Shown here: in pieces, positions 2,971 through 36,329 of the stretch | How the letters are laid out: the number at the start of each line of letters is the position of its first letter | How positions within the stretch are numbered: the stretch's first letter is position 1 | Assembly: GCA_035353175.1 (NCBI GenBank) | Contig: DAOPZC010000003.1 | Span: 62,473-126,472 of the forward strand | Length of the DNA stretch: 64,000 nucleotides | DNA from: Kiritimatiellia bacterium | Lineage (GTDB): Bacteria > Verrucomicrobiota > Kiritimatiellia > RFP12 > UBA1067 | Direction: 5' to 3' | Notes under the pieces: generated by a model | Seen by the model: only the letters and a program-made list of their open reading frames with translations | What the model was told of the DNA's origin: nothing | Database searches by the model: none | Translations under genes and position numbers: made by a program

Positions 2971-2984
2971 TCCTGACTATTACC

Positions 2985-4073: not shown

Positions 4074-4121
4074 ACCGTTACAGTTTATCCGATCTCCCGG
4101 AAAGCGTCAAAGCCCCCTCCT

Positions 4122-4160
4122 GAAAACAAAAAAGCCGCCGGTCTCCCGGCGGCCTCTTTC
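4122..4160 (-). terminator. rho-independent terminator downstream of the Pro/Ala-rich protein gene
   Basis: On the minus strand the sequence reads GCCGCCGG-gaga-CCGGCGGC followed by TTTTTTGTTTT. This is an 8-bp GC stem with a U-tract, about 15 nt after the stop at 4172. Confidence 0.6.
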
Positions 4161-4171
4161 AGCAGCGCGCA

Positions 4172-5218: not shown

Positions 5219-5251
5219 AACTCGTGCCTCCGTCTCACGTGGACAGCCGTC

Positions 5252-5815: not shown

Positions 5816-5830
5816 CCCAGCTCTCCTGCT

Positions 5831-6538: not shown

Positions 6539-6651
6539 AATCCGCTTATACTTGACACCACTCCGTTGCGTTTCCAGAAACGCCCCCTTTCAGCGCATTA
6601 TCAGAAACGGCAATAGCTTACCTAAACACCCCTGAAAGGTAAACCGCTTTT

Positions 6652-10770: not shown

Positions 10771-10918
10771 ATTCCGCCCCCCTCGTTGCACAGACAATAA
10801 CAAAGCCCCTTGCGCAATTCAACGCTTCGTGCCCGCCGCTGCGGGTTTGACCCGTCATCCTTGGCTATGTTATGTTTCGTTTATTATTTTCAGAAAACGA
10901 ACAAGGGAGACGGTTTTC

Positions 10919-13900
10919 ATGCTGGACCCGAGATACCGATCGACGCTCATTCTCGCAGCAGCCTTTTTCCTCTGCATCTCAACGAGTCGCTCCGAGCCGC
11001 CCAAAGCCCTCGCCGACGTCCGCGTCTTCGCGGTCTATGAGCCGGTCATGAGCCGCCAGGACGTCGAGCTTTTGGCGCGCGTCCATCCCGATTTCGTCTG
11101 CCGAGGCTGGTTCAAGTGGCACCACACCCCCGACTGGCGCGCGTACACCCCGCTCGCACAGGCCTGCGCCGAACAGGGCATTCTGCTACAGGGCGGCATC
11201 ACCCTCTCGGCGATCTATCCCGGCGAGAACGGCATGGACGACGCGGCCTTCCGCGATTTCGCAACCCACGGCACCGACGGGCAACCCTACCACTGCCGCA
11301 TGGCGGACAACGGCGGCTGGTACCAGCTCAGCCTCTATAACCCGAAAGTGATCGCGTATCTCAAGCGCGAGGTGCGCCTGCAGATCGACGCCGGCGCGGT
11401 CGGCATCTGGTACGACGAGATCGAAGGTTTCTACGACTGGAACCCGACCGAAGGCTACGACCCTTACGCCTGCGCCGCGTTCCGCGACTGGCTGATCCGC
11501 AAATACTGCGGCGGCCAAGGCTGGCGCGAGAACGACCCGCGCTGGCAGACGCAGTTCGGCATCGATCTCGCGAAACACGGCGGCACCATCCGCACCTTCG
11601 ACTATCTGCGCCACCTCCAGATCACGCCCGGCCGAGACGGTCAACCCCTCGCGGCCAATCCGGCGCAAGGCCACCCGCGCGCCTGGGCAACCTCTGCCAA
11701 CCCGCTCTACCGCGAGTGGGGCTTCGCGTGGGACCGCAAGGCCGCCGGCACCTTCCGTTTCGACACCGTGGCCGCGCTCTTTGCGGACATCCTCGCGGAT
11801 GCCGACCGCTACGCCCGCGAACGTTACGGACGCACGCTGATCAACACCTACAACCACAACGGCACGGCGCGCCCCGGCGTCGCTTTCCTCCAGCCGCACA
11901 ACGGCGCGCAGCCGCCGCTCCGCCACGGACGCCTCGACGGGCGCGCCAGTTACCTCACCTACTATGAGGATCTCATCGCCGATGCCGCGGGCCCTTGCCC
12001 CGGCCAGCCCGTCGTCTTCTTCGTGGACTGGCCCGGCGAGATCGACCGACTGGTCGCCCTGCCGCGCGCCGACCAGACCCACTTCTTCCGGATCTACATC
12101 CCCGAGGCGTATGCCGCCGGCGGCGAATTTGCCCTGCCGCTGCGCGGCTACTCCTATGTGGCCGCCCGGCAAGGCACGCTGGCCGCGCTCACGCGCATGG
12201 CCGACTTCTACCGCGAGTACGCGCCCTTCCTGCGCGGCTCGAAGCCTGGGGGCGCGGGCGGCCTCGTCCGCGATGAGTTCGACCGACTCACGGTCCGTCT
12301 CCGTTCGACCGCAGCCGGCACCGCCGTCCACATCGTCAACCACGCCTTCTCCACGCGTGACGTCTGGCCTTCGCCCCGCACCAACCTCTGTGTGACGCTG
12401 CCCTGGAGCGCCGCCGCGCCAGATTCCGCCTTCGCCGTCTCTCCCGATTTTCCTGACCAGCGTCCCGTGCCGGTATCGCTCAAAGACGGACAGCTCACGC
12501 TCGACGTCGGAACCGTCACCTGCAGTGCGCTCGTGCTGTTGCCCGAGCCCGATGCCCTGCGCCCGCTCACCGGGACCGCACCGAGCGGCACCCACATCGT
12601 CGACCCGCACGGCCGCGCGATGGCGGTCGCGCGCGACGGCCGCTTCACGCTCTGGCTGCCGCCGTCCGAAGGCGTCGGTCTCTGGCGCCGCCTGCTGGGG
12701 CGCGAGGCGTGCGCCACGCGCGAGCTGAAGTGCCTGGAAACCGGCGAGCGCCAGCCCGCGCGCGACGGCGCCGTTTTCGCCGCGCCGCCTGCGGGCGGCT
12801 TCGCCTCCGGCCTGTTGCTCGACGGGTTCGGCATTCCTCTGCGCCACACCGCGCTGACCTGCGGCACGCACCGCTGGCACACCGACGCCTGGGGCCGCTA
12901 CCGCGTGCCGTTGGCGCACGCCTCCGACGCACCGCTGACGGTCTGCGGCGAGGACGGGGCCGTGCACACGCTGGCCCTGTCCGACCGCTTCACCGCCCTC
13001 CGCCTCTTACCTGCCCGCACCCGCATCGGCGACTTCGCCGCATCGCAGGGCGGATACTGGGCCAACTGGCCCGACAAGGAGCGGCTCCGCGGCGTGATCG
13101 CGCTCGCCCGCGAGCGCCACCAAGAGCGCGACGCACTGCGCTGCACCTTCTCGCCCTCGCCATCCGTTCCGTGGTCGAACATCAACTCGCCCGCCTTCAC
13201 CCTCGAAACGGCGGACGCGGTCGAAGTGGTTTACGCAGGCGACGGCACAACGCGCACCGTCCACGCCGTGCTGCATGCGAACGGCCGCTTCTACCGCGCG
13301 CCGCTCGACCTCTCCGCTACAGGGTGGACCGTCAAGCGCATCGCGCTCGGCGAGTTTCGCGACGACCAGGGCGCGCCGTTCGACCCCGCCGCGCACACCG
13401 GCACCGCCGCCTTCCAGCTCGCACCGGCGGGCCTCGGCACCGCGCCCGCCACGCTCTGGCTGCACCGCGTCGCGCTCGTCACCGACACCCCCGTCGTGAC
13501 GCTGTGGCAGAGCGACGCCGCCTTTGACGACGCGGACGTCGACCACCTGCGCGCGGACCACCGCCCGCAACCGCCTCCGCCCCGCGCCGCAGCGCGGCAG
13601 CCGCTGGCGCGCTTCACCGACCCGGCCGCGCGCCACCTCGCCAACTGGGCCGAGAAGAGCGCGGCAGACAAACCGCTGGTCGCCATCGAGCGAGTGGCGC
13701 CGCCGGCCTCGCCGCCCTTCCTGCGGATCACCCTGGCTGCGGGCGAGTGCGCGTGGGGCAACGCCAACATTCCGCTGCCCGCGGACAAACTCGCCGGGAC
13801 GAGCGGCCTCGCCCTGCGGCTGCGCCACTCGCCTGCGACCGAGGATGTGACGGTCGCGCTCCACACGTCCGTCGACGGGAAAAACGCGTTCTTTCAGACG

Positions 13901-14092
13901 AACGTCGAAGCCGGTGAAACGTGGAGCGAACAGACGGTGCGCTGGGCCGAGTTCCGCACGGAATCCGGACGCGCTTTCACCCCTCAGACAGGCCCCTTCC
14001 TCAACCTCCAGATCTGCCGTCCGCCGCACCTGCTGAAACGCGCGCTCGTGATCGAAATCGACGCCGTCGACACCTTCGTTGAAACTCCTTAA
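10919..14092 (+). CDS. large secreted protein, putative TIM-barrel glycoside hydrolase with C-terminal beta-sandwich (CBM/CIA30-like) domain
   Basis: Shine-Dalgarno AAGGGAGA precedes the ATG at 10919. Signal peptide MLDPRYRSTLILAAAFFLCISTSRS. The segment ...GAVGIWYDEIEGFYDWNPTEGYD...FRDWLIRKYCGGQGW... resembles GH42/GH114-type hydrolases. The upstream 108 codons in the track (TTG start at 10595) overlap the divergent promoter and are rejected. Confidence 0.65.
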   Translation: MLDPRYRSTLILAAAFFLCISTSRSEPPKALADVRVFAVYEPVMSRQDVELLARVHPDFVCRGWFKWHHTPDWRAYTPLAQACAEQGILLQGGITLSAIYPGENGMDDAAFRDFATHGTDGQPYHCRMADNGGWYQLSLYNPKVIAYLKREVRLQIDAGAVGIWYDEIEGFYDWNPTEGYDPYACAAFRDWLIRKYCGGQGWRENDPRWQTQFGIDLAKHGGTIRTFDYLRHLQITPGRDGQPLAANPAQGHPRAWATSANPLYREWGFAWDRKAAGTFRFDTVAALFADILADADRYARERYGRTLINTYNHNGTARPGVAFLQPHNGAQPPLRHGRLDGRASYLTYYEDLIADAAGPCPGQPVVFFVDWPGEIDRLVALPRADQTHFFRIYIPEAYAAGGEFALPLRGYSYVAARQGTLAALTRMADFYREYAPFLRGSKPGGAGGLVRDEFDRLTVRLRSTAAGTAVHIVNHAFSTRDVWPSPRTNLCVTLPWSAAAPDSAFAVSPDFPDQRPVPVSLKDGQLTLDVGTVTCSALVLLPEPDALRPLTGTAPSGTHIVDPHGRAMAVARDGRFTLWLPPSEGVGLWRRLLGREACATRELKCLETGERQPARDGAVFAAPPAGGFASGLLLDGFGIPLRHTALTCGTHRWHTDAWGRYRVPLAHASDAPLTVCGEDGAVHTLALSDRFTALRLLPARTRIGDFAASQGGYWANWPDKERLRGVIALARERHQERDALRCTFSPSPSVPWSNINSPAFTLETADAVEVVYAGDGTTRTVHAVLHANGRFYRAPLDLSATGWTVKRIALGEFRDDQGAPFDPAAHTGTAAFQLAPAGLGTAPATLWLHRVALVTDTPVVTLWQSDAAFDDADVDHLRADHRPQPPPPRAAARQPLARFTDPAARHLANWAEKSAADKPLVAIERVAPPASPPFLRITLAAGECAWGNANIPLPADKLAGTSGLALRLRHSPATEDVTVALHTSVDGKNAFFQTNVEAGETWSEQTVRWAEFRTESGRAFTPQTGPFLNLQICRPPHLLKRALVIEIDAVDTFVETP

Positions 14093-14122: not shown

Positions 14123-14932
14123 ATGAAACGCTTCTTCCTTTCATTCGCCTTCTGCTCCCTCATCGCACACGCAGAGGCCCCCGCTTTTCTGAACAACGGC
14201 GTGACCGCGCACCGCGGCAATTCGGGCGAGTGCCCTGAAAATACCCTGTCGGCCTTCGAAAGCGCGATTGCCGTCGGTGCGGACTGGATCGAGACCGACC
14301 TCTACCTCACCAAGGACGGCCAGCTCGTCATTTCCCACGACCGGGACACCGGCCACACCGGCGACAAGAAGCTCAGCGTCACGAATTCGACCTACGCCGA
14401 GCTCCTGACGGTCGACGTGGCCACCGGCTTCCGCACGCGCAAAAAACTCACATTCGTCGAGTGTCCTCCCGCCCGTATACCGCTGTTCGCCGATGTCCTG
14501 AAGCTGATCGTAAAGCAGGACCGCACGCGCCTCTCGATCCAGCCCAAAAACGAATGCGTGCAGGCCGCCTTCGACGTGATCCGCGAGCTGAAAGCCGAGC
14601 GATGGGTCGGCTTCAACGACGGCAGCCTCAACAAAATGCGGCAGGTCAAAACGCAGTCGAAAGCCGTGCCGGTCTTTTGGGACCGCGACGCAAAAACCGA
14701 TATCGACGCGGACATCAGGACCGCGCGCGAAGAAGGCTTCGAAGCCATCGTCGTGAACGCCAAAGGACTCACGAAGGACAAGGTCGACAAAATCCGCGCG
14801 GCCGGTCTAGAAGCCGGCGTCTGGACCGTGAACAGCGAGGCCGAGCTGAAGGCTTTTCTCGCGCTCGGGGTAGCGCGCATCTACACCGACTATCCCGAGA
14901 GGCTGCTGCGCCTGAAAGCCCAGATGAAGTAG
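14123..14932 (+). CDS. glycerophosphodiester phosphodiesterase family protein (secreted)
   Basis: Signal peptide, then the GDPD motifs HRGNSGECPENTLSAFESAIAVGADWIETDLYLTKDGQLVISHD. Confidence 0.85.
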   Translation: MKRFFLSFAFCSLIAHAEAPAFLNNGVTAHRGNSGECPENTLSAFESAIAVGADWIETDLYLTKDGQLVISHDRDTGHTGDKKLSVTNSTYAELLTVDVATGFRTRKKLTFVECPPARIPLFADVLKLIVKQDRTRLSIQPKNECVQAAFDVIRELKAERWVGFNDGSLNKMRQVKTQSKAVPVFWDRDAKTDIDADIRTAREEGFEAIVVNAKGLTKDKVDKIRAAGLEAGVWTVNSEAELKAFLALGVARIYTDYPERLLRLKAQMK

Positions 14933-14959: not shown

Positions 14960-16120
14960 TCACCGCTTCTCTGCGAAATCTTCAGACGTCAGCACACCGT
15001 CACCGTTGCGGTCGAGGCGCGGAAACATCGGCTGCGGACCCTTGAACTCCTCGCGCGTGACGCGGCCGTCGCCGTCCGCGTCTTCCCGCGCCTTGACCTG
15101 TTCGAACGTGGGCCGCCGCTTTTGGGCCCCGTCTTTGCCAGCCGGCCCGGGCCTTGTCCCAGCCTCCCCGACCGCCTCGCTCGAGGTGCAGCTCGACTCT
15201 GCGTGCGGACGTTCCGCCGACTTGAGCCACCTGTCAAAGAAGGCGTTGACCCTATCCGTGATCTCGCCGCCACCGAAACCTTGGCCATGTCCCGCGCCTT
15301 GGATCGTATGGAACTGGACGTTGCCACCCGCCTTTTTGAGCGCCTCATACAGCAGCTCACTCTGATGGTGCGGCACCAGTGGATCGGCGTCGCCGTGCAC
15401 GATCAGGAAAGGCGGCAGGGCGTTTATGGACACATATGTGATCGGATTCACGCGCGTTGCTTTGGCCTTGTTTTTCTGGATCGGCCCGCCGATCAGACTG
15501 GCCTCCGGCGACGCCGCGTCGTCATGCTTGAACGGCGCGCCCGGACGCGCATGGCTGTCCATCTGCAAGAGATCGGTCGGCCCGAAAAAGTCGCACACCG
15601 CCTGCACGCGGCTGGAAACATCGAGATTCGCTCCGACATCGAAAGCCTTCTCGTCGCCGCTCGTGCCGAGCAGCGCGACCAAGTGACCGCCCGCCGAGCT
15701 GCCCCACACGCCGAAGCGATCCGGATCGACCCCGAACTCCTTGGCGTGCGCTCGCAGCCAGCGAATCGCAGCCTTGCAGTCTTCGATCTGCGCGGGAAAA
15801 ATGGCGTCACCGCTCAGCCGATAGCCGACGCTGGCCACCGCATACCCCCGCTGCACAAAGCCCTGCCGCAGCGGCGGGCATCCGTCCTTGCTGCCGCCCT
15901 TCCAGCCTCCGCCGTGAATCCAGATGACCACCGGCAACGCGTTCGTCGCCCGCTCCGGCATATAGAGGTCCAGCTTCTGGCGCGCGTGTCCGTTCTCGAC
16001 ATACGTAAGATCCCGCAAGGCCTTGACGCCTTCGGGAACAAAAGCCGCACCGGCGGAAGGCTGAGCCTGCGCGAGCCCTGCCAGAACGAATGCGGCCGCA
16101 AAAGAAGATGAGGTTTTCAT
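14960..16120 (-). CDS. secreted alpha/beta-hydrolase (esterase/lipase fold) with C-terminal tandem EF-hand calcium-binding loops
   Basis: Signal peptide; VVIWIHGGGW (HGGG oxyanion motif); GVWGSSAGGH (GxSxG nucleophile); His-Asp region LIVHGDADPLV. The C-terminus carries DADGDGRVTREEF and DRNGDGVLTSEDF, two canonical DxDxDG EF-hand loops. Confidence 0.8.
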   Translation of the reverse strand: MKTSSSFAAAFVLAGLAQAQPSAGAAFVPEGVKALRDLTYVENGHARQKLDLYMPERATNALPVVIWIHGGGWKGGSKDGCPPLRQGFVQRGYAVASVGYRLSGDAIFPAQIEDCKAAIRWLRAHAKEFGVDPDRFGVWGSSAGGHLVALLGTSGDEKAFDVGANLDVSSRVQAVCDFFGPTDLLQMDSHARPGAPFKHDDAASPEASLIGGPIQKNKAKATRVNPITYVSINALPPFLIVHGDADPLVPHHQSELLYEALKKAGGNVQFHTIQGAGHGQGFGGGEITDRVNAFFDRWLKSAERPHAESSCTSSEAVGEAGTRPGPAGKDGAQKRRPTFEQVKAREDADGDGRVTREEFKGPQPMFPRLDRNGDGVLTSEDFAEKR

Positions 16121-16194
16121 AGCCGCTTGAACGGACGATCCGGCAACATATTGGGGCGTTTAACAGGAAATTAGAGCCGTCCCCGCCGGCCGCT

Positions 16195-18336
16195 TCACCC
16201 TTCCCTCGGAAGCGCCCGCCTCTTTAAAACGACCTTCACCTGAACGACGTCGTGCCGGTTCTCTTCCGGCACGAAGAAGGTTTTCGCGAGCTTGGCCGAC
16301 GCATACGCCTGTTTCGCACGTCCGTCATCCCCTTCGAGCTTGACCTCCGGGTCGTCGGCTGCGCCGGCCAGAATCGAGACCGTTTGCTTCGCCAGCGCCA
16401 GCGTCTCCCGGTCGACGTTGCAGAACTCGCACGCCGCGTCCTCGTAACCTTCCGCCTTCACACTGGCGCGCAGGTTTGCCTCCGGCATCTTCCCCATGTA
16501 AAACAGCGAGCGCGCGAGATAGAAAAACGAGAGGCGCGGGATATCCGCGAAGAGCGCCTGGCCGTCCGCGTTGACAGGCAGCGTCCGCGACATCGGCTCC
16601 CAGCTGTCTGAGATCCGCCCGCTTCCGTATGCCCGGTCGATGTCGGCTGAATCGCCCAGCAGCCGGATCTCTTTCAACGCGACCTGCGCCCCGCTTACCG
16701 GCTTGCCGCCCTCGTCAACGACCGACACCTTCACGCCGGTTTTGTACCTGTCCTTCAAGAGCGGCATCAGCTCGGCTGACAGCAGCGTCATGTTCCGCAT
16801 CGACATGAAATGCGCTTTCTTAACCGTCGCCAGCACGTTCGTCAACCCTTTCGGCAGCGCGCCGTCGAGATCGGCAGGCAGCGCGTCAGCGATCGCCTTC
16901 GGAAATACGAAGGGTCTGAGCGGCGCAGAAGCCGCGATGGCTTTGGCCGCCGCCTCGTCCGCTGCTTTTTCCTCGGCCGCACGACGGGTCTCCGCAGCTT
17001 GCTTGTCCTGCGCCGCTTGGGCGAGGCGCGCCCGCGCCTGGTCCGGCGTCTCGCCCTTCAAAAGCGGCGCCCAGTATTGATCGTTGCCCGGCTTCACCTC
17101 TTTAGTGAGCTTGCCCTCGCCGGACACGTACGCGACCACCTGCCAGCGCTCGTTGAAGACCGTGTAGAGGATCTCGCCGCTTCGGCGCGTGTTCCTGATA
17201 TAATGCGTTTTTTTGCTCTTCGGAAAAAAGATGCTCTCTTCCGACTCCTGCGGTTTCTCGATGCCCGCGTAATACAGGTTCTTCTCCGACCGCAGCGGCC
17301 AGCCCTCCTCGTCATACGTGTGGTCTGTGATCCGCCACCACGTCCCACGCTCGTCAGTCTCCTTGAAGCGCTTGACTTGCCCTTTCGCAGGGCCCTCCGC
17401 GACCCGTTCCGTCTCCGTGCGGTATCCGTCCGAGCGCACAAAGACCTCTGTGCCGCTCGCGTTCGTGCAGGTGTAGTCGACCGGCGTGGCATAGCACGTG
17501 TTCGTCTCCTTTTGCTGCCAGAGATAGGCCACGCCCGGATACGCGACGTGCATGCCGCCCACATAATGGATCTCGTTTGTCGCGACGTAAGCCAAGATCT
17601 TCTTCCGTGTCTCGACCGCCTGCGCGGCGTCGACGTCGTACGTGACGGCGACCTCGGGGTGCGGAATCTGGAGGAGTGCCGCATGCGTGAGGTCTCCCCA
17701 TATGAGCAGCTTCTTCGTTTGCCCCTCCACGAGAAACACGGTATGGCCGGGCGTGTGGCCATCGGCGGCGAAAGCGGTCACGCCGCGAACGAGCTGGGCA
17801 GGCTTTCCGTCCTCCAGTTTCTGCGGGTGGAACAGGCGAAAGCGGCCGGCGTAAGCGTCAGCGATTATCTGCGCGTCGTCGCCCTTCTGCTTCCAGTGCT
17901 CGAATTCGCGCCGGGCGATGTAGACCGTCGCGTTCGTGAAGACCGCTACGCCGCCGCGCAGCAATCCGCCGATGTGGTCTCGGTGCATATGCGTGATGAG
18001 CACGGCGTCGATGTCGCCCGCGCCGACGCCGGCGGATTTCAGGTTGTCGAGCAGTTTGAGTCCGAGCCCCGTGTCCACGAGAACCGTCTTCCCGGCGGCG
18101 CGCACGAGAAACGCGTTGACCGCGTTGGACACGGAGCCTCCCGGCGCGTAGCGCTTCAAAATATCGTCGGTTGCGCCGATGAGGATCTCTTTCCCGATTG
18201 TCTGCTGCCGCTCGGCAAGCGTCGTCACCGTCGCACCGCCAAGCTGGAACTCGAAGGTCCCTGGCAAAACCGCCTCCTCAGCCCAAGCCGCCCAGCCCGC
18301 GAGGGCGATCATCCCGACGATAATGTTTGTTCTCAT
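16195..18336 (-). CDS. secreted metallo-beta-lactamase-fold hydrolase fused to a ~420-aa uncharacterised C-terminal region
   Basis: Signal peptide. The MBL motifs are ITHMHRDHIGGL (HxHxDH), ADGHTPGHTVFLV and LIWGDLTHAALLQ. Beyond ~aa 290 there is an Ala/Glu-rich linker (ARARLAQAAQDKQAAETRRAAEEKAADEAAAKA) and then a domain with no recognisable signature. The gene lies 8 bp downstream of the GH42 gene, so the two are probably co-transcribed. Confidence 0.8.
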   Translation of the reverse strand: MRTNIIVGMIALAGWAAWAEEAVLPGTFEFQLGGATVTTLAERQQTIGKEILIGATDDILKRYAPGGSVSNAVNAFLVRAAGKTVLVDTGLGLKLLDNLKSAGVGAGDIDAVLITHMHRDHIGGLLRGGVAVFTNATVYIARREFEHWKQKGDDAQIIADAYAGRFRLFHPQKLEDGKPAQLVRGVTAFAADGHTPGHTVFLVEGQTKKLLIWGDLTHAALLQIPHPEVAVTYDVDAAQAVETRKKILAYVATNEIHYVGGMHVAYPGVAYLWQQKETNTCYATPVDYTCTNASGTEVFVRSDGYRTETERVAEGPAKGQVKRFKETDERGTWWRITDHTYDEEGWPLRSEKNLYYAGIEKPQESEESIFFPKSKKTHYIRNTRRSGEILYTVFNERWQVVAYVSGEGKLTKEVKPGNDQYWAPLLKGETPDQARARLAQAAQDKQAAETRRAAEEKAADEAAAKAIAASAPLRPFVFPKAIADALPADLDGALPKGLTNVLATVKKAHFMSMRNMTLLSAELMPLLKDRYKTGVKVSVVDEGGKPVSGAQVALKEIRLLGDSADIDRAYGSGRISDSWEPMSRTLPVNADGQALFADIPRLSFFYLARSLFYMGKMPEANLRASVKAEGYEDAACEFCNVDRETLALAKQTVSILAGAADDPEVKLEGDDGRAKQAYASAKLAKTFFVPEENRHDVVQVKVVLKRRALPREG

Positions 18337-18344
18337 AAGAACCT

Positions 18345-21300
18345 TCAGCGTTGCGTGTTGCCGGCCGCGCGCATCTGGAGCAACAGCGGAACCATCGGCT
18401 CGACGGTGAAGGTCGGCTCCAGACGTTTGCCCGTGATGAGATCCGTCATCGGCGCGTCCGTGACGCCAGCCAGCGTGACGACCTTGGGCTCGCGCAGGTG
18501 ATTGCAGACCGATGCGACCCTGCCGTCGCCCAAGCGCGCCGCGCGGATCTCCACGCCAAATACCGGACGCCCCTGCGTGTCAACGACGCGCAGCGCAGGC
18601 GGCAGGCCCCACGCTTCAGCGCGCGCAGCAAGCGACTCAAACAGCGCCGCCGAATCCGCCGATTTCAAAAGCGTCTCGAAACCGGCGGCGTCGCGGGGCT
18701 GATTGTAGTCGTTCTCTGCCGGTGCCTCACCGACCACCACCGCGCGCACGCCCGCCGTCCGCAACTTCTCGAGCCCGGCCCGCGCGTCGTCGGGCAGGTG
18801 CGTGACACTTGGCAGCATAAGGACCTTGGCCGAATCGAGCGGCCGCGGCGCAACGCCCGTGCGCGCGAGCAACGCGAGCTTCTCTTCGGTCGCAAAGCCG
18901 AGCGGCTGCCCCAAGAAGTTGGCCGCCTCGTAGGCGTCGGTCAGCGCGTGCTCGTGGTTCTTGCCGAGCATGACCGACGACGGGCTCCACAGGAACACGA
19001 TGCTCGGCGCGAGGTTCTGGATCGCGGCGACTTCGCGCGCCAGCCGGTTGAGATCGAGGCCGCAACGCCCGACCGCCTCCACGCAGTCGGGCCGGTGCAG
19101 GATCGAGCCAGAGGCGTCGCTCGCGTAGTCGTTGCTGCGCTCCCAGAGCCAGATGGTCGTGGCGCTCTGCCCGTGGACCGCGTTCTGCCAGAGCGCCGCA
19201 TAGATGTGCGCCGGCGGAATCACGTCGAGGTCGCGGTCGACGATGAGGTGGTTCTCGGAGTTGACGACCGAGAGATCGGCCATGCTGCGCTGGAAGTCGT
19301 AACCCGCCTGGCAGTGCCGCCACCCGTTGATCCACAGCGAGCCGTCTTTGTCGTACATGTTGTACGCGTCGTTGCCGTTGTACTGGCTGAGCGCCGCAAA
19401 GGCACCGGGATCGACCGACCAGAAGCCGTGCAGCGTCTTCTGGAAATGCGCGCCCATCATGATCTTGGCATGCACCGGCAGCCCGGGCGCCATGTCATGC
19501 ACCACGTCCGCCATCCAGCGGTGGAATGCCGCAAAGGTTTCGTTGTTGAAGCGGATGAAGTCGAGGCACGCGGGCGTGTCGGTGAACTCCGGCTGCGGCA
19601 CGGGGATCGACGCGAAATCGGCGTACGCCGTGCCCCACCGCGCGTTGAGCGTCGCGATCGAGCCGTGCCGTTTCTCCAGCCACGCCGGCCACGCCTGGGC
19701 CGTCACGCGGCATTTCGAAAGATCCACGCAGATCGGCTCGTTGCTCAGACAAATCGAATGCAACGCCGGATGGTCCTTCACGCGCGGAATCACCTGCCGC
19801 AACGATTTTTCGATCACGGCGCGGGCGTCCGGATCATGCACGCAGTATTTGAAGAAGCCGCCCTCGCACGCTTTCAGATGCGGCCACTTCTCCAGCGCCC
19901 ACTGCGGAAAGTAGTGCGGACTCAAGAGGAGAATAACGGAGACGTTCGCCTGCGCGGCACGGTCGCAGACCGCCAGAAACTCCTGGATTGCGCGGTCACT
20001 GGTGTCCGTTTCGTTGGGCAGCACCGAGTTGGGGCCGAATTCGATCTGGATGATGTTGCATCCGTAACCGGGAAGCTTTTCGATGTCGCGCTTCACCTGC
20101 CCGAAGTGGCCATAGCCGGTGAACAGCACGGGGCCGCGCTCGGTCGTGCCGTCCGGGAAACGCCGTGTGCCGACCGTCTGCGCGTGCGAAATCTCCAACT
20201 TGCCTGTCGCGTAGCGCGGCACCGGGAAATCGGCGGCCTGTCCATCGAGAATGGCGCGGGCGTGCGCCTCCTCGCGGGCGGACATCTGGTCCAGCAGGCA
20301 GGCGGTGTCCCACGCGCGGTCGACCTTGCCGTCCGCGAGATCGGACGCGACCCATGGCACGAAGTTGTCGAGCACGGTCAGCGTCACGCGCGATGCCGCA
20401 CCGAGCCCCCTCTTCTCCAGCTGCTCCACGTCGGCGCGCAGCCGTTCGCGGGCCGCGACGGCCGGCGCGAGCCGTGCGCGGACGCGCTCGGACGAAACGA
20501 GGTTGACCGTGCCGGTGTGGCAGGCGGCCGGGCGGCCGTCGCGCAGCAGCCGGGCGGTGAGCGCGAGCGTTTCGGGGGCGCGGCCGCCCAGCTCCGCGCG
20601 CAGCGTGAGCAGGGCCGCGCGCGTGCCGGCCGCAAGCGCCGCCTGCTGGCGCGTCAAAACGCGGCCCGCGGCATCCGCCAGCTCGACCTCGACCGCACAG
20701 GCATGCGACGCGTCGCCGACGGTCACGACGCCATCGGCCTTGAACTCATTTCCGCAGAAGCTCCAAGCGTCGTTCGGCCAGCGCTGCGGCGCCCAGCGTG
20801 TGTTGATGGCGTGGCCTTTGTAAAGCACCTCCGGCGGTTCGGCGGGCGCCAGGTCCACGAAATCGGCCAGCGCCGCGCCCTCCAGCGCGGCGGGCACCGG
20901 GCTCACGCCTTCGCGCAGCGAGAGGTCATCCAGCCACACGCCCTCGGTCGGGCGGTCCGAGCAGATGCGCAGCACAAATTCCGTCTCTTTCTCGCCGGTG
21001 ACGAAGGTGTGCGCGACGCGTTCCCAGCGGCCGCGTGTGGCGGGCAGCGAGCGGCGGACCTTCCAGCCCTCGCCGCCGCCGATCCAGATGCCGGGCGAGG
21101 TCTTGCCGGTCTTCACGAACGCCGAGAGCGTGTAGCTGGTACCGGGCTTCACGGGCACGGGACGCGCCAGCCACAGCGTACCGTAGACGTGTGCGCCGAA
21201 AGCGGTGCCGTTGGTGATCTTGACGGCGGTCTTACCCGTATGAGGGCCCGTCGCATCCAGCATGAGCTTGGCGTCGGTGTTACGCCGATCCCAGTGCCAG

Positions 21301-21932
21301 CCCGCCGGGCACCCGTTCTCAATCTCCTCGAACGAGCTGTTCGGCACCAGGTTCGCGCCAGGCTCAAACGGCTGGAGCGTCAGGCGCGACTCGCCGTCGG
21401 CGAGCGGCGCCTCGTGGACGAACGGCGTCGCGGCCGCGCCGGGCTCCAGCATCACATCGTCGATCCACAACCCGGCCGTCGCGCTGTCGGTGTTGATGCG
21501 GAGCGTGAACTGCGTCTCGCCGGCTTCGGTGGCGAACGAACCGACCACGCGCTGCCAGCCCGCCGTCTTGGCGGGCAGCATGAAGCGGTGCTGCCAACGG
21601 CGGCCGCCGCCGATCCAGGCGACCCCGCCGCCGTCGGTCTTGACGTAGCAAGAGAGCGTGTAGCGGCTGTTGGGCGAAACGCCCACGGTCTGCGTGAGCG
21701 AACCGAAGACGTTCGGTTGTTGCGGCGTCGGGTTTTTCAGGCAGAGGGAGGATTTGCCCGAGCGCGCGATGGCCGGATTGGCCTGGCATGTGGCCATGGC
21801 CGCCCCGCCCTGCCAGTCCCAACCCGGAATCCGCTCCCCGTCAGCTTTCTCGAAGCTCGGATTCTCCAGCAGATTCTCCGCGACCGCCATCCACGCGATC
21901 AGCACCGCACACAAAACCGTCCACCCGCGCAT
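18345..21932 (-). CDS. secreted glycoside hydrolase family 42-like beta-galactosidase with two N-terminal CBM (family 4/9/22-like) modules
   Basis: Shine-Dalgarno GGGGAGG; signal peptide. Two ~180-aa N-terminal repeats each start NLLENPSFEKADGERIPGWDW / NLVPNSSFEEIENGCPAGWHW and end ...W(I/L)DD(V/L)(M/S)L. The catalytic region matches GH42-type signatures (WPAWLEKRHGSIATLNARWGTAYADF, HYFPQWALEKWPHL, SNEP). Confidence 0.85.
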   Translation of the reverse strand: MRGWTVLCAVLIAWMAVAENLLENPSFEKADGERIPGWDWQGGAAMATCQANPAIARSGKSSLCLKNPTPQQPNVFGSLTQTVGVSPNSRYTLSCYVKTDGGGVAWIGGGRRWQHRFMLPAKTAGWQRVVGSFATEAGETQFTLRINTDSATAGLWIDDVMLEPGAAATPFVHEAPLADGESRLTLQPFEPGANLVPNSSFEEIENGCPAGWHWDRRNTDAKLMLDATGPHTGKTAVKITNGTAFGAHVYGTLWLARPVPVKPGTSYTLSAFVKTGKTSPGIWIGGGEGWKVRRSLPATRGRWERVAHTFVTGEKETEFVLRICSDRPTEGVWLDDLSLREGVSPVPAALEGAALADFVDLAPAEPPEVLYKGHAINTRWAPQRWPNDAWSFCGNEFKADGVVTVGDASHACAVEVELADAAGRVLTRQQAALAAGTRAALLTLRAELGGRAPETLALTARLLRDGRPAACHTGTVNLVSSERVRARLAPAVAARERLRADVEQLEKRGLGAASRVTLTVLDNFVPWVASDLADGKVDRAWDTACLLDQMSAREEAHARAILDGQAADFPVPRYATGKLEISHAQTVGTRRFPDGTTERGPVLFTGYGHFGQVKRDIEKLPGYGCNIIQIEFGPNSVLPNETDTSDRAIQEFLAVCDRAAQANVSVILLLSPHYFPQWALEKWPHLKACEGGFFKYCVHDPDARAVIEKSLRQVIPRVKDHPALHSICLSNEPICVDLSKCRVTAQAWPAWLEKRHGSIATLNARWGTAYADFASIPVPQPEFTDTPACLDFIRFNNETFAAFHRWMADVVHDMAPGLPVHAKIMMGAHFQKTLHGFWSVDPGAFAALSQYNGNDAYNMYDKDGSLWINGWRHCQAGYDFQRSMADLSVVNSENHLIVDRDLDVIPPAHIYAALWQNAVHGQSATTIWLWERSNDYASDASGSILHRPDCVEAVGRCGLDLNRLAREVAAIQNLAPSIVFLWSPSSVMLGKNHEHALTDAYEAANFLGQPLGFATEEKLALLARTGVAPRPLDSAKVLMLPSVTHLPDDARAGLEKLRTAGVRAVVVGEAPAENDYNQPRDAAGFETLLKSADSAALFESLAARAEAWGLPPALRVVDTQGRPVFGVEIRAARLGDGRVASVCNHLREPKVVTLAGVTDAPMTDLITGKRLEPTFTVEPMVPLLLQMRAAGNTQR

Positions 21933-22160
21933 CAGTACCTCCCCGAAGAGCGCGGCCTATTACAAACTCGCGCAAACATCACAATAAACGAGGAACCGTG
22001 TGCCGTCCACCCTTTTGAGGGCGTTTACGAAATCGGTCTATGGCAAGTGGGATCCTGCGGGAAGACGACGAAGAGTTGCTCGCATGACACGTGCCGCACG
22101 AAACAGTTGGAATGCGTGCGGCAAGCGGTATTCCGCGCGACGCCGCTTTGAATCCGCCCA

Positions 22161-22193
22161 GAAAAAGCGGTGCCGCGCGACGCTTGTCACCGC
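22161..22193 (-). terminator. rho-independent terminator of the alcohol dehydrogenase gene
   Basis: On the minus strand: GCGGTG-acaagcgtcgcgcggc-CACCGC followed by TTTTTCTGG, ~30 nt after the stop at 22225. Confidence 0.55.
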
Positions 22194-22224
22194 ACTCCAG
22201 AACCAAGACGATCACGCCTCATTT

Positions 22225-23217
22225 CTAACTCCTCCGCATCTCCAGCACCGCCGCGCCGATGAGAATCCCCGACCGCAGATCATCCAGCGCCTCGTTGGCC
22301 CGTGCCAGCGGATACGTCGTCACGCGCGTCTCCATGCGGACACCTTCGATGGCCTCGAAAAACGCCACGCCGTCTGCGCGCGTCAGGTTCGCGACCGACC
22401 GCACACAGCGCTCCTTCCACAGCAGGCTGTACGGGAACGACGGGATGTCCGACATGTGGATGCCCGCACACACCACCGTGCCGCCGGGCCGGACATGTGT
22501 CAGCGCGGTCGGTACCAGCCCGCCCGCCGGCGCGAAGATCAGCGCCGCGTCCAGCGCGTGCGGCGGACGTTCCTCGCTGTTTCCCGCCCACACGCAGCCC
22601 AGCCCGCGAGCGAAATTCTGCGCTTCCTCATCGCCCTTGCGCGTGAAGGCGTACACCTCGCGTCCCTGGGCCACCGCGAGCTGCGCCAGCAGATGCGCCG
22701 CCGCGCCGAAGCCGTAGAAGCCGATGCGCCGCGCCTCCGGGACCATGCGGTACGCGCGGTAGCCGATCAGCCCGGCACACAACAGCGGCGCGGCGTGTTC
22801 CGACGACCAGCCCTCCGGTATTCTGAAGCAGTAGCGCTCATCGGCCACGCAATATTCCGCATACCCGCCGTCCAGCGTATAGCCCGTGAACTTCGCCGAT
22901 GCGCAGAGGTTTTCCTGCCCGCTGCGGCAAAAGTCGCAGACGCCGCACGTCCAGCCGAGCCACGGAATGCCGATGCGGTCGCCGATTTTCACGAAGCCGC
23001 ATTGCGGGCCCACCGCCTCGACCACGCCCACGATCTCATGCCCCGGGACCAGCGGCAGCTTCGGCTCTTTGAGCTCGCCGTCCACCACGTGCAGGTCGGT
23101 GCGGCACACGGCGCACGCCTGCACCCTCACCAGCGCCTGCCCCTCGCCCGGCTGCGGCCTCGGCAGATCGCGAAGCGACAAGGGGTTCCCCGCTTTCTCC
23201 AGCACCATCGCTTTCAT
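22225..23217 (-). CDS. zinc-dependent alcohol dehydrogenase (MDR family)
   Basis: Shine-Dalgarno AAGGAGG precedes the ATG at 23217 (MKAMVLEKAG...). Catalytic Zn ligands C..H (CAVCRTDLHVVDG, GHEIVGVV), structural Zn cluster C-x2-C-x2-C-x7-C (CGVCDFCRSGQENLC), and Rossmann GFGAAAH. Confidence 0.85.
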   Translation of the reverse strand: MKAMVLEKAGNPLSLRDLPRPQPGEGQALVRVQACAVCRTDLHVVDGELKEPKLPLVPGHEIVGVVEAVGPQCGFVKIGDRIGIPWLGWTCGVCDFCRSGQENLCASAKFTGYTLDGGYAEYCVADERYCFRIPEGWSSEHAAPLLCAGLIGYRAYRMVPEARRIGFYGFGAAAHLLAQLAVAQGREVYAFTRKGDEEAQNFARGLGCVWAGNSEERPPHALDAALIFAPAGGLVPTALTHVRPGGTVVCAGIHMSDIPSFPYSLLWKERCVRSVANLTRADGVAFFEAIEGVRMETRVTTYPLARANEALDDLRSGILIGAAVLEMRRS

Positions 23218-23328
23218 ACCGCACCTCCTTGTTTTTCGGCACGGGCACTTTAGCATTTTTTGCGGCCAGTCGTTGATTATCCATTCGCGCCACTAGCCGT
23301 CGGCAGACTGCGCGCCCCGGCCTGACGT

Positions 23329-24072
23329 TCAGTACGCCGTCCGGCACGCGATGCCGTGCGCCCGGCACGCCTCCGCGAGCTTCCGCCCCGTGTCCGCGAA
23401 ATACGCGTCGGTGTTCTGATCGGTCCAGCCCCATTTTCTGTAGACCCAGTCGGCGTGACGATAATTCATCCGGTCGATGATGAGGTGCTCGACATTGCCT
23501 TCCAGCATGCCGATCAGACCCTCGGCCCCGGGAAGGATCGGCGCGATCATCACGTACGTCCTGATGCCGTTCCGATGCAGGACTTCGACAGCCCTCAGCC
23601 GATCCGGAATCGGCGGTGCCAGAGGCTCAAAGCGCTTCCTGACGTCGTCGCTCGCCGTGGTGATCGAAAGCCCCACCTCCACCTCTTCCACCCCCTTCAA
23701 GATGTCTACATCGCGCAGCACCAGCGGCGAACGCGTCTGCACAGCCACCGGCCAGCGGTTCTGCACAAGGATCTCAAGGCACTGTCGGCTCAAGCGATAC
23801 GTCGCCTCCAAAGGCTGATACGGATCGCAGACGCCGCTGAGCCAGACGGTTCCCCGCTTTTTCTTCTGAATCTCCTTGCGCAGCAAATCGGGAGCGTTGA
23901 CCTTGACGTCCACAAACGCGCCCCACGGCTCCGCATGCCCGGTGAAGCGCTTCATGAAGCGGGCGTAGCAGTACGAGCACGCGTGCTGACACCCCACGTA
24001 GGGGTTCACGACGTAATCGTAAATCTCCGACTTGGACAGAACGGATTTGGCCTGGATTTCGCGGACAATCAT
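23329..24072 (-). CDS. small radical SAM protein (SPL/'DNA-repair photolyase' COG1533-like)
   Basis: The conserved start MIVREIQAKSVLSKSEIYDYVVNPYVGCQHACSYCYARF carries the CX3CX2C radical-SAM cluster motif; ~247 aa. The ATG overlaps the stop of the upstream SGNH gene in ATGA (24069-24072). The upstream 125 codons in the track belong to another reading frame. Confidence 0.75.
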   Translation of the reverse strand: MIVREIQAKSVLSKSEIYDYVVNPYVGCQHACSYCYARFMKRFTGHAEPWGAFVDVKVNAPDLLRKEIQKKKRGTVWLSGVCDPYQPLEATYRLSRQCLEILVQNRWPVAVQTRSPLVLRDVDILKGVEEVEVGLSITTASDDVRKRFEPLAPPIPDRLRAVEVLHRNGIRTYVMIAPILPGAEGLIGMLEGNVEHLIIDRMNYRHADWVYRKWGWTDQNTDAYFADTGRKLAEACRAHGIACRTAY

Positions 24073-25703
24073 TTGGGCATCGCCGAATACCGCAGGTCGT
24101 CGAGCGTGTCGCCCTCCACCGGAAGCAGCGCGCAGGCGAACTGGCGCTGCCACTGCAGGTGGTCGTTGCGCACCAGCAGGCAATTCCAGCCTTGTTTGAG
24201 CGACGCCTTGCCGATCTCCTTGTTCTTGCCGCCGCGGTTGAGGTCGGCGACCAGACCCCGTTCGCCGTTGATCCAGACCACGAAGCCGTGTGTGGCCGAG
24301 AAGGTGCGGTGCGAAAGCTGGATCTGCACCGGGCGCGCTTTCGCGCTGTAGACCCAGCGCACGGCGTAGAGCACGTCGTTCTCGCTCCCGAAACACAGGC
24401 TGTAGGGCACGATTGAATTCGGATCGTCGCCGGCCGTGTAGTCGACGCACGGCGTGTTCACCTGCCAGCCATACGTTCTCTGACCATCCGTGAACGGTTC
24501 CAGAAAATGTTTCCCAGACACCAAATCAGCCTCCATGAACGGCACGCTGTTGGTCGGCACGTAGCCCCGCTGCGCGCTCCATGCGCCGCCGTTGTCGGGT
24601 CCGCAGAGCACGCGCCACGACGCCGGGATCTGCACAGTTTGGCGAACCGTCTCCTCGCCCACCTTGGCGACGACCGTCACCGGATTCTGCAGCCGCTCGG
24701 GCGCGCCGCAGAGCGTGAATGCCGCCTCGGTCTTGGTCACGGGCGACTCAGCCACGCTCCAGCCCTCCGGCACTTCGAGCGAGAAGGTCGGCACGCGCAG
24801 AGCCGTCGCCTCCTTGCCATCGTTCCAGAAGCATTCAAGCCGGTACGTTTGTTCCGCACGTTCGGCGGGACACCCCGGCTGCGGTTTGAACCAGGTGGTC
24901 ACCGACGGCTTGGCGGGCGCCAGCTTGGCGATCTCGGCGGCGATGCGCGCGTCGAACGCGGCGACCAGCTTGTCGTCCTGCAGCGCCGCGACCATGCCGC
25001 GCGCGATGGCGGCGTGCCCGAGCGGCTGCTGCGGATGCACCGTGTCCGGAATGACGTGATAATCCTGCCGGACCTTGCGGCAACGCGTCACGGCGCCGAA
25101 GACCGACGCCCCGGTCGCGGCGGTGCGGCACTTCTCTTCCTTGGCGAGCTCGTTCGCCAGTTGCGTCAGCCGGTCGCGCACACGGTTCTTGGGCGAAAGC
25201 GGGTCCTCGGTGAGCGGCGTGATCTCGCACAGCACGATCTCGCGCGGCGTGACGCGCGCGCGGATCGCCTTGACCAGCTCGCGGAGTTTCGCCTTCCAGG
25301 TCTGCAAGACCGCCTCGTCGTCCCGCATCGTCGGCCGCAGAATATCGTTCATGCCGAGCAGGATGAAGACGATGTCGCCGTGCCGGGCGAACGCCGTCCG
25401 GACGTCGAAGCCGCCGGTGTTGGCGGGCACGGACTGCGTACGGCTCTTGACCTCCAGGCTGTCCGTCCAGTCGAAGAGCGTGTTGCCGGAGAAGCCGAGG
25501 CCGATGACCTCGTAACCGGACGCAGGATAGGCCTTGTGCAGTTCATTCGTGAACTGATGATAATACCCCTGCGAACCCCCCACGGCTTGCGCCGTGATGC
25601 TGTCGCCCACGAAAATGATGCGGTCGTTCGGCTTGAGCAGCGAGTCCGCAAAACTTAGACTGGCCGCCAGCGCGGCACCCCATGCCACCCGATACACGTT
25701 CAT
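24069..25703 (-). CDS. secreted SGNH/GDSL hydrolase (esterase) fused to a ~330-aa C-terminal beta-rich domain
   Basis: Shine-Dalgarno GAGGGGAGA. Signal peptide, then block I IIFVGDSIT, block III (LGMNDI), block V (DTVHP). The long C-terminal extension has no recognised motif. Confidence 0.8.
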   Translation of the reverse strand: MNVYRVAWGAALAASLSFADSLLKPNDRIIFVGDSITAQAVGGSQGYYHQFTNELHKAYPASGYEVIGLGFSGNTLFDWTDSLEVKSRTQSVPANTGGFDVRTAFARHGDIVFILLGMNDILRPTMRDDEAVLQTWKAKLRELVKAIRARVTPREIVLCEITPLTEDPLSPKNRVRDRLTQLANELAKEEKCRTAATGASVFGAVTRCRKVRQDYHVIPDTVHPQQPLGHAAIARGMVAALQDDKLVAAFDARIAAEIAKLAPAKPSVTTWFKPQPGCPAERAEQTYRLECFWNDGKEATALRVPTFSLEVPEGWSVAESPVTKTEAAFTLCGAPERLQNPVTVVAKVGEETVRQTVQIPASWRVLCGPDNGGAWSAQRGYVPTNSVPFMEADLVSGKHFLEPFTDGQRTYGWQVNTPCVDYTAGDDPNSIVPYSLCFGSENDVLYAVRWVYSAKARPVQIQLSHRTFSATHGFVVWINGERGLVADLNRGGKNKEIGKASLKQGWNCLLVRNDHLQWQRQFACALLPVEGDTLDDLRYSAMPK

Positions 25704-25933
25704 TCGATTCTCCCCTCAGTCAGCACCTTTTGGCGTCTGTCAAAACGCAGTATAACATCTTTCAGCGGCTGGCGCGCTTGCCATTTTCCGCGAAAAAAGG
25801 TACCGCATTCCGCGTCCGCGAAATCTTGTTTGTTCATTGTAATCCCTTTCGTTCCCCTCACAAATAACCGTTGCGCATCCACTTGTCTTTGGCGTATCCT
25901 CAGACAGTTTTCAATCTATATCAAGGGGCTAAC

Positions 25934-27241
25934 ATGATGCAGACTATGCACCGCCGCTCGTTCCTGAAGGGATCTCTTTTCGCCACGCTGGCCGCCGCGA
26001 ACGCGCCGGTTTTTGCAGCCGATGCTCCAAAACCAATCGCAAAGAAAACCGAGCCGCCCGCGCCGCCCTTGGTGAGCACCCCGCCGACCCTTCAGATTCC
26101 CGCGCCGACCTCCATGGGCGTCGCGTGGGGCGTCACCGCCAGAGCCACCGGCTTTGTCGACGTCGGGAGCAAGCCCGACCTTTCCGACGCCCGCAGGATC
26201 TTCGCGGGCGACGGCGGACTGAAAGCCCTGGATGACGCCGCGCTGTCGGTCCGGATCACGGGCCTGAAGCCGGATTCGGTCTACCACTACCGCACCGGCA
26301 CGCTGCCGATCGATTTTCAGGGCGCGTACAAAATTTTTCCGGGCGAGCCGGTCCTGAGCGGCATCCATTCGTTCCGCACCCCTGGCCCGAAGTCCGCGTC
26401 CTCATTCGCGGTCATCAACGACACGCACGAGAACCATCCGGCCTGCGCCCTGCTGGCCGCCCAGATCGACGCGCTCAACCCGGCCGTGACCGTCTGGAAC
26501 GGCGACCTCTGCAACTGGCTGGAGCAGATGCCGAAGATGGTGCAGAGCCTGCTCAACCCGGGCCAGAGCGCGTTCGCGGTCAGCCGCCCGTTCCTTTTCA
26601 CCCCCGGCAACCACGACTACCGGGGCGTGCTGGCCCGCGAACTGCCGCGGATCCTCATGACGCGCGAGCCGGCCGAGCGCGACAGCAAATTCTGGACGTT
26701 GGGCCGCAACTATGCGGTCCGGCAAGGCGACATCGCGCTGATCGGGCTCGACACCGGCGAGGACAAGCCGGACGATCGCAGCGAATGGGGACAGCTGGCG
26801 CAGTTCGCGCCCTACCGCGCGCTTCAGGCGAAGTGGCTGGCCGAAGTCCTGGAGCGTCCGGACATCAAGGCGGCGCCGTATCTCGTGGCCTTCTGCCACA
26901 TTCCGCTTTTCGACGACACCCCCGATGCCAACCCGGGCGACCTCGCAGAGGGCTACGCTTCGTGGCAACGCCAGTGCCACGACCTGTGGTCGCCGCTTTT
27001 CGAAAAGCACGGCGTCCAGCTGGTCGTCACGGCCCACAAGCACAAGTTCCGCTTCGACGCTCCGGCCGCAGGACGGTCGTGGGCCCACGTCGTCGGCGGC
27101 TCCGGCTGCACGCTCAAGCCGGGGGGCGAGTTGACGGTCCTCGAAGGCAAGGTCGTCGACCACCAACTGAAACTGATCGCCCACGACCTGACAGCGAAGT
27201 CGGTCATCGGGGAATACGCCTTCAAGCCGCGCGGCGGATGA
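25934..27241 (+). CDS. Tat-exported metallophosphoesterase (purple acid phosphatase/calcineurin-like)
   Basis: Shine-Dalgarno AAGGGG precedes ATGATG at 25934. Tat motif HRRSFLKGSLFATLAAANAPVFA. Metallophosphoesterase motifs include GDLCNW, TPGNHDY and CHIPLF. Confidence 0.8.
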   Translation: MMQTMHRRSFLKGSLFATLAAANAPVFAADAPKPIAKKTEPPAPPLVSTPPTLQIPAPTSMGVAWGVTARATGFVDVGSKPDLSDARRIFAGDGGLKALDDAALSVRITGLKPDSVYHYRTGTLPIDFQGAYKIFPGEPVLSGIHSFRTPGPKSASSFAVINDTHENHPACALLAAQIDALNPAVTVWNGDLCNWLEQMPKMVQSLLNPGQSAFAVSRPFLFTPGNHDYRGVLARELPRILMTREPAERDSKFWTLGRNYAVRQGDIALIGLDTGEDKPDDRSEWGQLAQFAPYRALQAKWLAEVLERPDIKAAPYLVAFCHIPLFDDTPDANPGDLAEGYASWQRQCHDLWSPLFEKHGVQLVVTAHKHKFRFDAPAAGRSWAHVVGGSGCTLKPGGELTVLEGKVVDHQLKLIAHDLTAKSVIGEYAFKPRGG

Positions 27242-27263
27242 TCAGACGCGCCTCCTGCCGTCC

Positions 27264-36259: not shown

Positions 36260-36329
36260 GATGCCGTTTGATGTCTTTCACATTTTTCGAGATGCGTCTC
36301 CATTTGCCCGTATCAAGAAAGGTGAAGCC

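Follow-up and report, generated by a model that had tools for sequence, protein, structure and literature searches.

The 64,000-nucleotide stretch of a Kiritimatiellia metagenome-assembled genome analysed here (contig DAOPZC010000003.1, positions 62,473 to 126,472; hereafter the window) carries three closely spaced genes, for a secreted glycosidase, a 713-aa protein that joins a metallo-beta-lactamase (MBL)-fold domain to a long C-terminal tail, and a secreted esterase, and raises the question of whether the MBL-fold protein works together with its neighbours. A sequence-only reading of the locus had answered that it does, taking co-transcription to suggest the removal of a non-sugar substituent from a galactan-type substrate. 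The explanation that we favour, and consider moderately probable, is that the 713-aa protein leaves the cytoplasm and acts as a di-metal hydrolase of lactonase/esterase type, to which one lineage has added non-catalytic modules that position it, and that its gene was recently inserted beside that of the glycosidase, among exported hydrolase genes whose order is fluid.

The glycosidase gene (gene 1, 18345-21932, 1195 aa), the MBL fusion gene (gene 2, 16195-18336, 713 aa) and the esterase gene (gene 3, 14960-16120, 386 aa) all lie on the reverse strand in the open reading frame (ORF) list. They are separated by gaps of 8 bp (18337-18344) and 74 bp (16121-16194) and belong to a same-strand run of six genes, from 25703 down to 14960, encoding a GDSL lipase, a radical SAM enzyme (rSAM), a zinc-dependent alcohol dehydrogenase (ADH), the glycosidase (glycoside hydrolase, GH), the MBL protein and the esterase. 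By eye, each of the three products starts with a short basic stretch, a hydrophobic core and an AxA-type end, as in a Sec signal: MRGWTVLCAVLIAWMAVA followed by EN in gene 1, MRTNIIVGMIALAGWAAWA followed by EE in gene 2 (residues 1-19, 18280-18336, reverse strand, with no Cys lipobox) and MKTSSSFAAAFVLAGLAQA followed by QP in gene 3. The coordinates, gaps and signal-like N-termini given in the sequence-only reading were thus borne out by the ORF list and the leaders. When both gaps were folded, neither contained a terminator-like hairpin (the 74-bp gap folded no better than shuffles, z-score +0.6), and co-transcription of the three genes in this genome is therefore plausible.

Conservation of the arrangement is confined to close relatives. 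Only two relatives were found to share the three-gene order, one at strain level (L006/L007) and the other a sister species (L016); each is collinear with the window over the whole 20-kb neighbourhood, and the conserved synteny of the three genes expected from the earlier reading did not extend further. In five other lineages (L001/L019, L002/L018, L004/L005, L008/L023 and L009/L017) the fusion gene sits amid unrelated, mostly opposite-strand genes, and no homologue of the glycosidase or esterase was detected on the 3.5-kb contig that carries it in L022. Viewed from the glycosidase side, where one metagenome scan gave 38 loci, 30 of them extending 1 kb or more downstream, an MBL gene lies within the flanks of only two of the 30 (L024 and L025). 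Two loci with closely related glycosidases have no MBL gene: L029 (GH 73% identical) reads GDSL, rSAM, ADH, esterase, GH, glycerophosphodiesterase (GDPD) and a big ORF, and L045 (GH 74% identical) reads GDSL, rSAM, ADH, GH and a big ORF. The backbone around the MBL gene therefore also occurs in its absence. Compared with the MBL gene, the esterase gene accompanies the glycosidase somewhat more regularly. It also switches sides: the window, L006 and L016 have it downstream of the MBL gene, and L025, L026, L027 and L029 have a 54-71% identical copy upstream of the glycosidase. Overall, the GH-MBL-esterase set is a recent local arrangement and not part of a conserved operon. Functional coupling of the MBL protein with the glycosidase and esterase is weakly supported, because its linkage to these neighbours is poorly conserved. 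Genes for exported hydrolases change their neighbours from one close relative to the next, and short gaps between genes in such glycan-degrader genomes therefore say little about function.

The catalytic part of the 713-aa protein is a complete MBL-fold di-metal hydrolase domain (residues 26-275, 17512-18261, reverse strand; Pfam Lactamase_B, 3e-20), and a protein identical to the whole product is deposited as 'MBL fold metallo-hydrolase'. The match to PF00753 scores 73.4 bits against a cut-off of 22.7, placing the domain in the metallo-beta-lactamase superfamily. Its HxHxDH motif, already recognised in the sequence-only reading, reads THMHRDH (H116, H118, D120 and H121), and these residues together with H194, D215 and H263 form a metal-ligand set that does not vary among 17 aligned full-length homologues, which are 55-89% identical and show conservation along their entire length. 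Matches to solved structures span the entire domain: the reconstructed dihydrocoumarin hydrolase (DHCH) ancestor AncDHCH1 (5hif, 2e-36), OPHC2 (4le6, 7e-36) and methyl parathion hydrolase (MPH; 1p9e, 6e-31). The similarity to these solved relatives is moderate (129 bits), with all motifs aligned. MPH accepts organophosphates, aryl esters and lactones (PMC5052733). The closest curated model is that of the AidB quorum-quenching lactonase (NF047979, 6e-39), although at 133.9 bits the domain falls outside this equivalog family, whose cut-off is 360. Other NCBIfam models of N-acyl-homoserine-lactone (AHL) lactonases (YtnP, 3e-14; AiiA, 1e-9; AttM) also score well under their equivalog cut-offs, and an acyl-homoserine lactonase structure (4zo2) is matched at 1e-21. 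Among the subfamilies considered in the sequence-only reading, AHL lactonases are thus the closest at sub-cut-off scores, while glyoxalase II, along with RNase Z and B3 lactamase, scores far lower than AidB. The Alkyl_sulf_dimr and Alkyl_sulf_C/SCP2 domains gave no Pfam match in the 713-aa protein at E values up to 10, and an alkyl-sulfatase/SCP2 identity was rejected on this ground and because the predicted folds differ.

At E<1e-10 the MBL domain has more than 2000 homologues. Nearly all of the best 120 are single-domain proteins of 254-326 aa, the exceptions being the longer or partial P0022 and P0023. The single-domain relatives, of about 285 aa and 45-56% identity, occur in Bacteroidales, Verrucomicrobiota and other groups. 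Because the same MBL domain exists in these more than 2000 single-domain proteins, the tail is likely to be an accessory specific to one lineage.

The tail has three parts, and the sequence-only reading, which described an Ala/Glu-rich linker followed by a domain without recognisable motifs, had seen the linker and the last domain; an all-beta domain precedes the linker, and the last domain is related to a known family. The all-beta domain (residues 276-430, 17047-17511, reverse strand) is family-specific and contains an invariant RSDGYRTE motif (R301-E308). Modelled in isolation, it is predicted as an 11-strand antiparallel meander (predicted local distance difference test, pLDDT, 93.6). It has no Pfam or PDB sequence match and no homologue beyond its own family among 1.84 billion representative proteins. 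The Ala/Glu/Lys/Gln-rich linker (residues 431-471, 16924-17046, reverse strand) starts as a helix in the model and varies in length, with indels of 7-21 residues among the 17 aligned sequences. The last 242 residues (472-713, 16198-16923, reverse strand) are predicted to form a helix-decorated beta-sandwich resembling transthyretin and CarboxypepD_reg domains, the isolated model having a pLDDT of 93.4 and a predicted template modelling score (pTM) of 0.88. CarboxypepD_reg Pfam matches occur in all 19 members of the C-domain alignment (best 5.7e-8), and the window's own copy scores 15 bits against PF13620, under the gathering cut-off of 32.3 bits. We conclude that it is probably a divergent CarboxypepD_reg/transthyretin-like sandwich. 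The C-domain profile gave only matches with E>0.1 against PDB sequences, and a word-indexed search with it found four proteins only.

The isolated models of the tail thus give a meander and a sandwich, in part a known common fold, and not an SCP2 domain. No catalytic family is matched by the tail, whose two predicted beta-rich folds are of a binding or scaffold type. Of the earlier suggestion of an undescribed substrate-binding module, the part that makes the tail a non-catalytic add-on is supported, and the meander, which belongs to no known family, speaks partly in its favour; the last domain is related to a known family. Purifying selection acts on all four segments of the 713-aa protein, with ratios of nonsynonymous to synonymous substitution (dN/dS) of 0.1-0.5. 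The C-domain also occurs in free-standing proteins of about 210-340 aa, several with an N-terminal hydrophobic, signal-like leader. The free-standing homologues in L010-L012 have no MBL or glycan genes alongside, and a Rosetta-stone link through them was rejected for this reason. One of them (P0043) lies in L010 within a same-strand cluster (1208-6913) of small unannotated genes and a radical SAM enzyme. Two unclassified modules are flagged here, an orphan beta-meander and a decorated transthyretin-like domain, the latter forming a small family with free-standing members.

We infer that the protein is exported and is a hydrolase with two metal ions, probably zinc, of the MBL-fold lactonase/aryl-esterase/phosphotriesterase clade, which includes methyl parathion hydrolase, OPHC2, the reconstructed dihydrocoumarin hydrolase ancestor and AidB. 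By analogy with the family, a metal-bridging hydroxide would be held by H116/H118/H194 and D120/H121/H263, with D215 bridging, and would attack the carbonyl of a lactone or ester; a phosphotriester would be a less likely target. Judged by its sequence relatives, the natural substrate class is most likely a small lactone (an acyl-homoserine, aromatic or sugar lactone). The C-terminal 440 residues would be non-catalytic and may keep the enzyme in place, or tether it, within the periplasm, at the cell envelope or on a polymer. They would not define the chemistry; the same catalytic domain stands alone (~285 aa) in thousands of other bacteria. The MBL gene would have been placed between the GH167/GH42-like glycosidase gene and the GDPD gene in this genus only, where it is probably co-transcribed, and it would be an obligate partner of neither the glycosidase nor the esterase. 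If so, a common secreted hydrolase has gained lineage-specific accessory domains, which is nothing unusual, and the label 'MBL fold metallo-hydrolase' can give way to the more precise annotation of an MPH/AidB-like lactonase-type enzyme.

Several observations weigh against this explanation. No characterised relative exceeds roughly 40% identity, and the AidB score of 134 bits is far under the cut-off. The strongly conserved hairpin bearing the RSDGYRTE motif could contact the active site and alter specificity. A recurrent link to glycosidases, which the favoured explanation takes to be incidental, is hinted at by the 8-bp gap to the glycosidase gene, by a fusion of an MBL domain to a GH3 enzyme (P0024) and by L024, in which the glycosidase gene (70% identical) precedes an MBL gene (69-74% identical) and all other neighbours are different. 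In L024 (7974-9776) the MBL gene ends exactly at the start of the middle domain (APVD, then RQDRRWR and the stop) and is followed by a DUF6036 gene and then by a 63-residue duplicate of the MBL N-terminus. From the truncation, the DUF6036 gene and the duplicate fragment, L024 looks like a rearranged or invaded locus. Gene fission was rejected for the 283-aa P0049, which is truncated at a domain border in a rearranged locus and is not a natural two-gene version.

That the three genes form a functional operon, in which the MBL enzyme strips acyl, lactone/lactyl, sulfate or phosphate groups from a galactan-type polysaccharide bound by the tail, appears unlikely. The short gaps without a terminator-like hairpin, the exported look of all three products, the adjacency of glycosidase and MBL genes in L024 (among otherwise different neighbours) and L025, and the MBL-GH3 fusion P0024 all fit such an operon, and the predicted tail folds, a transthyretin-like sandwich and a beta-hairpin sheet, are of kinds that may bind glycans. 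The fusion gene is, however, unlinked to glycosidase or esterase homologues in at least six lineages, an MBL gene is present at two of 30 glycosidase loci, and L029 and L045 share the backbone without it. The L024 copy is truncated before the tail in a rearranged locus, and free-standing C-domain homologues are beside neither glycan genes nor MBL genes. The protein also lacks alkyl-sulfatase domains, and the known chemistry of its clade concerns small lactones, esters and triesters. The step from co-transcription to removal of a substituent from galactan is thus not supported, the order being confined to close relatives and the MBL domain probably belonging to the lactonase/aryl-esterase/phosphotriesterase clade. 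Both findings that the sequence-only reading had itself named as telling against it were largely made, since part of the tail has a known common fold and synteny is not general; an SCP2 or dimerisation match is absent. A related view keeps the lactonase chemistry and regards the MBL clade as glycosidase-associated: it might open aldonolactone-type or aglycone lactones that arise as products, or act as inhibitors, of clan GH-A and GH3 enzymes, with the tail as a new targeting device. We hold this to be rather improbable. If true, what joins the clade to glycosidases in three independent cases (in the window genus, in L024 and in the P0024 GH3 fusion) would be meaningful rather than due to chance, and the Kiritimatiellia-specific tail would be a polymer- or envelope-targeting device that brings a lactonase to the site of glycan breakdown.

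Quorum quenching, by an AHL lactonase displayed on the cell envelope that degrades the signals of neighbours, is conceivable but doubtful. The best curated models are AHL lactonases (AidB, YtnP, AiiA and AttM), 4zo2 is matched and the protein looks exported, yet all scores are far under the equivalog cut-offs, the nearest solved relatives belong to the dihydrocoumarin-hydrolase/MPH group and not to the AiiA type, and AHL-related genes are not nearby. It is moreover a guess at the substrate within the explanation that we favour and not another architecture. Phosphoester scavenging, in which the MBL protein would act as a phosphodi- or triesterase alongside the GDPD (14123-14932) and a purple-acid-phosphatase-like protein (Metallophos/Pur_ac_phosph_N, 25871-27241), seems very improbable. 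Both of these genes, assigned by Pfam, lie within 10 kb, and MPH and OPHC2 are phosphotriesterases, but both are on the strand opposite to the three genes, the backbone with GDPD exists without an MBL gene (L029), and elsewhere the fusion gene has no phosphatase neighbours. In addition, phosphotriesterase activity in the MPH/DHCH clade is regarded as recent and derived from promiscuity, which counts against this view.

The distribution of the fusion is consistent with a lineage-specific origin of the tail. A scan of 185,579 species-representative genomes with a signature of the middle domain found eight loci, all in Kiritimatiellia-type metagenome-assembled genomes (MAGs), some of which bear odd taxon labels. 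Literature searches on Kiritimatiellia together with MBL or lactonase found nothing relevant. The wider MBL clade carries other appendages, namely a GH3 glucosidase (P0024), a PD40 propeller (P0031) and, in Prevotellaceae, an unrelated C-terminal domain of ~190 aa. In P0024 (L013, 10001-12976), from Bacteroidales, an N-terminal MBL domain of the same clade (47% identical) is joined to a complete GH3 beta-glucosidase, and the gene lies a few genes away from SusD, SASA and GH115 genes. The 419-aa P0022 (L008) ends in GGGETGCRGAGGCCR, which looks out of frame, and the short form probably reflects a frameshift in the MAG and not a truncation that occurs in nature. In L008, a gene for a reverse transcriptase is located ~7 kb upstream. 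Compared with the strain-level relative L006, the window is 99-100% identical in nucleotides from ~17900 to 27300 and 74-97% identical below 17900, with the minimum of 74% at 16400-16700. The synonymous rate (dS) jumps alongside the nonsynonymous rate (dN), and the drop inside the MBL gene therefore marks the breakpoint of a mosaic, due to recombination or to assembly, rather than diversifying selection. A hypervariable tail, or one targeted by a diversity-generating retroelement, was rejected, as dN/dS is 0.1-0.5 in every segment and dS jumps too.

The glycosidase of gene 1 belongs to clan GH-A and is GH167/GH42-like. Pfam identifies CBM_4_9 in two stretches (6e-13) and Glyco_hydro_42 (5e-21). 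The first CBM_4_9-like jelly-roll module covers about residues 20-165 (21438-21875), and residues 20-191 are 40% identical to the single carbohydrate-binding module (CBM) of the L024 homologue; the second covers residues 192-342 (20907-21359; best Pfam stretch 194-325, NCBIfam spike-fiber-type jelly roll 192-342). Both are on the reverse strand, and relatives of about 1020-1046 aa have one CBM copy only. The catalytic (alpha/beta)8 region (residues 636-1018, 18879-20027, reverse strand) was aligned over 383 residues to BovGH167 (6ptm), pairing CLSNEP with the acid/base motif MLCNEP and VNSENH with the nucleophile motif FNTEGH. The catalytic glutamates of BovGH167 are E295 and E472 (PMC6923384). 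BovGH167 (1.7e-29) and 9whd, labelled 'GH167' (7e-27), are the best solved relatives, compared with about 1e-11 for solved GH42 enzymes. The GH42 Pfam match, at 76 bits against 21, is partial (profile positions 12-241 of 376), and Pfam found neither the GH42 trimerisation domain (PF08532) nor the C-terminal domain (PF08533). By these sequence comparisons, gene 1 appears nearer to GH167 than to GH42, so that the earlier label of a tandem-CBM GH42 fits the two modules and the partial GH42 match but not the closer relation to GH167. Homologues at the 38 metagenome loci (L024-L062) are 29-87% identical and have one or two N-terminal CBM_4_9-like modules. This clade, widespread in metagenomes and uncharacterised, could form a distinct subfamily or family.

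Gene 3 encodes a secreted BD-FAE-type carbohydrate esterase with an EF-hand pair as its tail, as the sequence-only reading had labelled it in part. The BD-FAE match (PF20434, 1e-71) scores 241 bits against a cut-off of 26.8, the GxSxG nucleophile motif is GSSAG, and the PDB matches are 6nkf (4e-62), the GH43-CE protein 6mly (3e-43) and the acetyl xylan esterase 6xyc (2e-40). The EF-hand pair (residues 338-383, 14972-15109, reverse strand) has the loops DADGDGRVTREE and DRNGDGVLTSED and matches EF-hand_5 (28.7 bits against 25.9) as well as EF-hand_1/6/7/8.

Large exported proteins are abundant in the window. A 1165-aa ORF at 10595-14092 (forward strand), within a stretch of 72% GC, has no Pfam or NCBIfam match and adjoins GH/GDPD genes in L006, L016, L029 and L045, at 67-93% identity. 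A 2894-aa ORF occupies 27264-35948 (reverse strand), and its L006 counterpart has PATR autotransporter repeats. Further genes encode a BspA-type leucine-rich-repeat protein (36240-38348, forward strand) and a protein with a hydrazine-synthase-alpha middle domain (56490-58847, reverse strand).

GH167 enzymes release beta-neocarrabiose from carrageenan oligosaccharides, and the N-terminal domain of BovGH167 is all alpha-helical (PMC6923384), whereas the gene 1 clade has one or two CBM_4_9-like modules. The clan GH-A catalytic domain and both catalytic glutamate motifs are shared, but the similarity is remote, and the source of gene 1 looks like anaerobic-reactor and sediment metagenomes and not a carrageenan polysaccharide utilization locus. 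For the 713-aa protein, MPH, OPHC2, AncDHCH1 (1p9e, 4le6 and 5hif) and the AidB lactonases share an exported MBL fold and the same seven metal ligands, and the motifs THxHxDH, GHTPGHT, WGD and H-x-x-PG align over the whole domain. These enzymes are single-domain proteins of ~290-330 aa, whereas the 713-aa protein adds a tail of 440 aa. The real nearest relatives of the MBL domain are the uncharacterised single-domain 'glyoxylase-like metal-dependent hydrolase' proteins (P0052-P0166), which have the same domain length and an N-terminal signal-like sequence but not the beta-meander, linker or sandwich. Alkyl sulfatases of the SdsA1 type resemble the fusion in that a long C-terminal extension comes after the MBL domain, but theirs consists of dimerisation and SCP2-like domains and that of the 713-aa protein is predicted to be a beta-meander and a transthyretin-like sandwich. 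In contrast to the CarboxypepD_reg/transthyretin-like domains of the SusC N-terminal extension (9hfj) and carboxypeptidase D (5aq0), the sandwich here is embedded in a 242-aa unit that adds an N-terminal helical segment of ~55 residues, with an LPxDLDxALP motif, and a helical insertion of ~35 residues. Pneumococcal Pce/CbpE is a secreted MBL-fold hydrolase whose beta-hairpin choline-binding repeats anchor the enzyme at the cell surface. It may offer an architectural analogue, as a secreted MBL-fold hydrolase joined to a non-catalytic beta-hairpin module.

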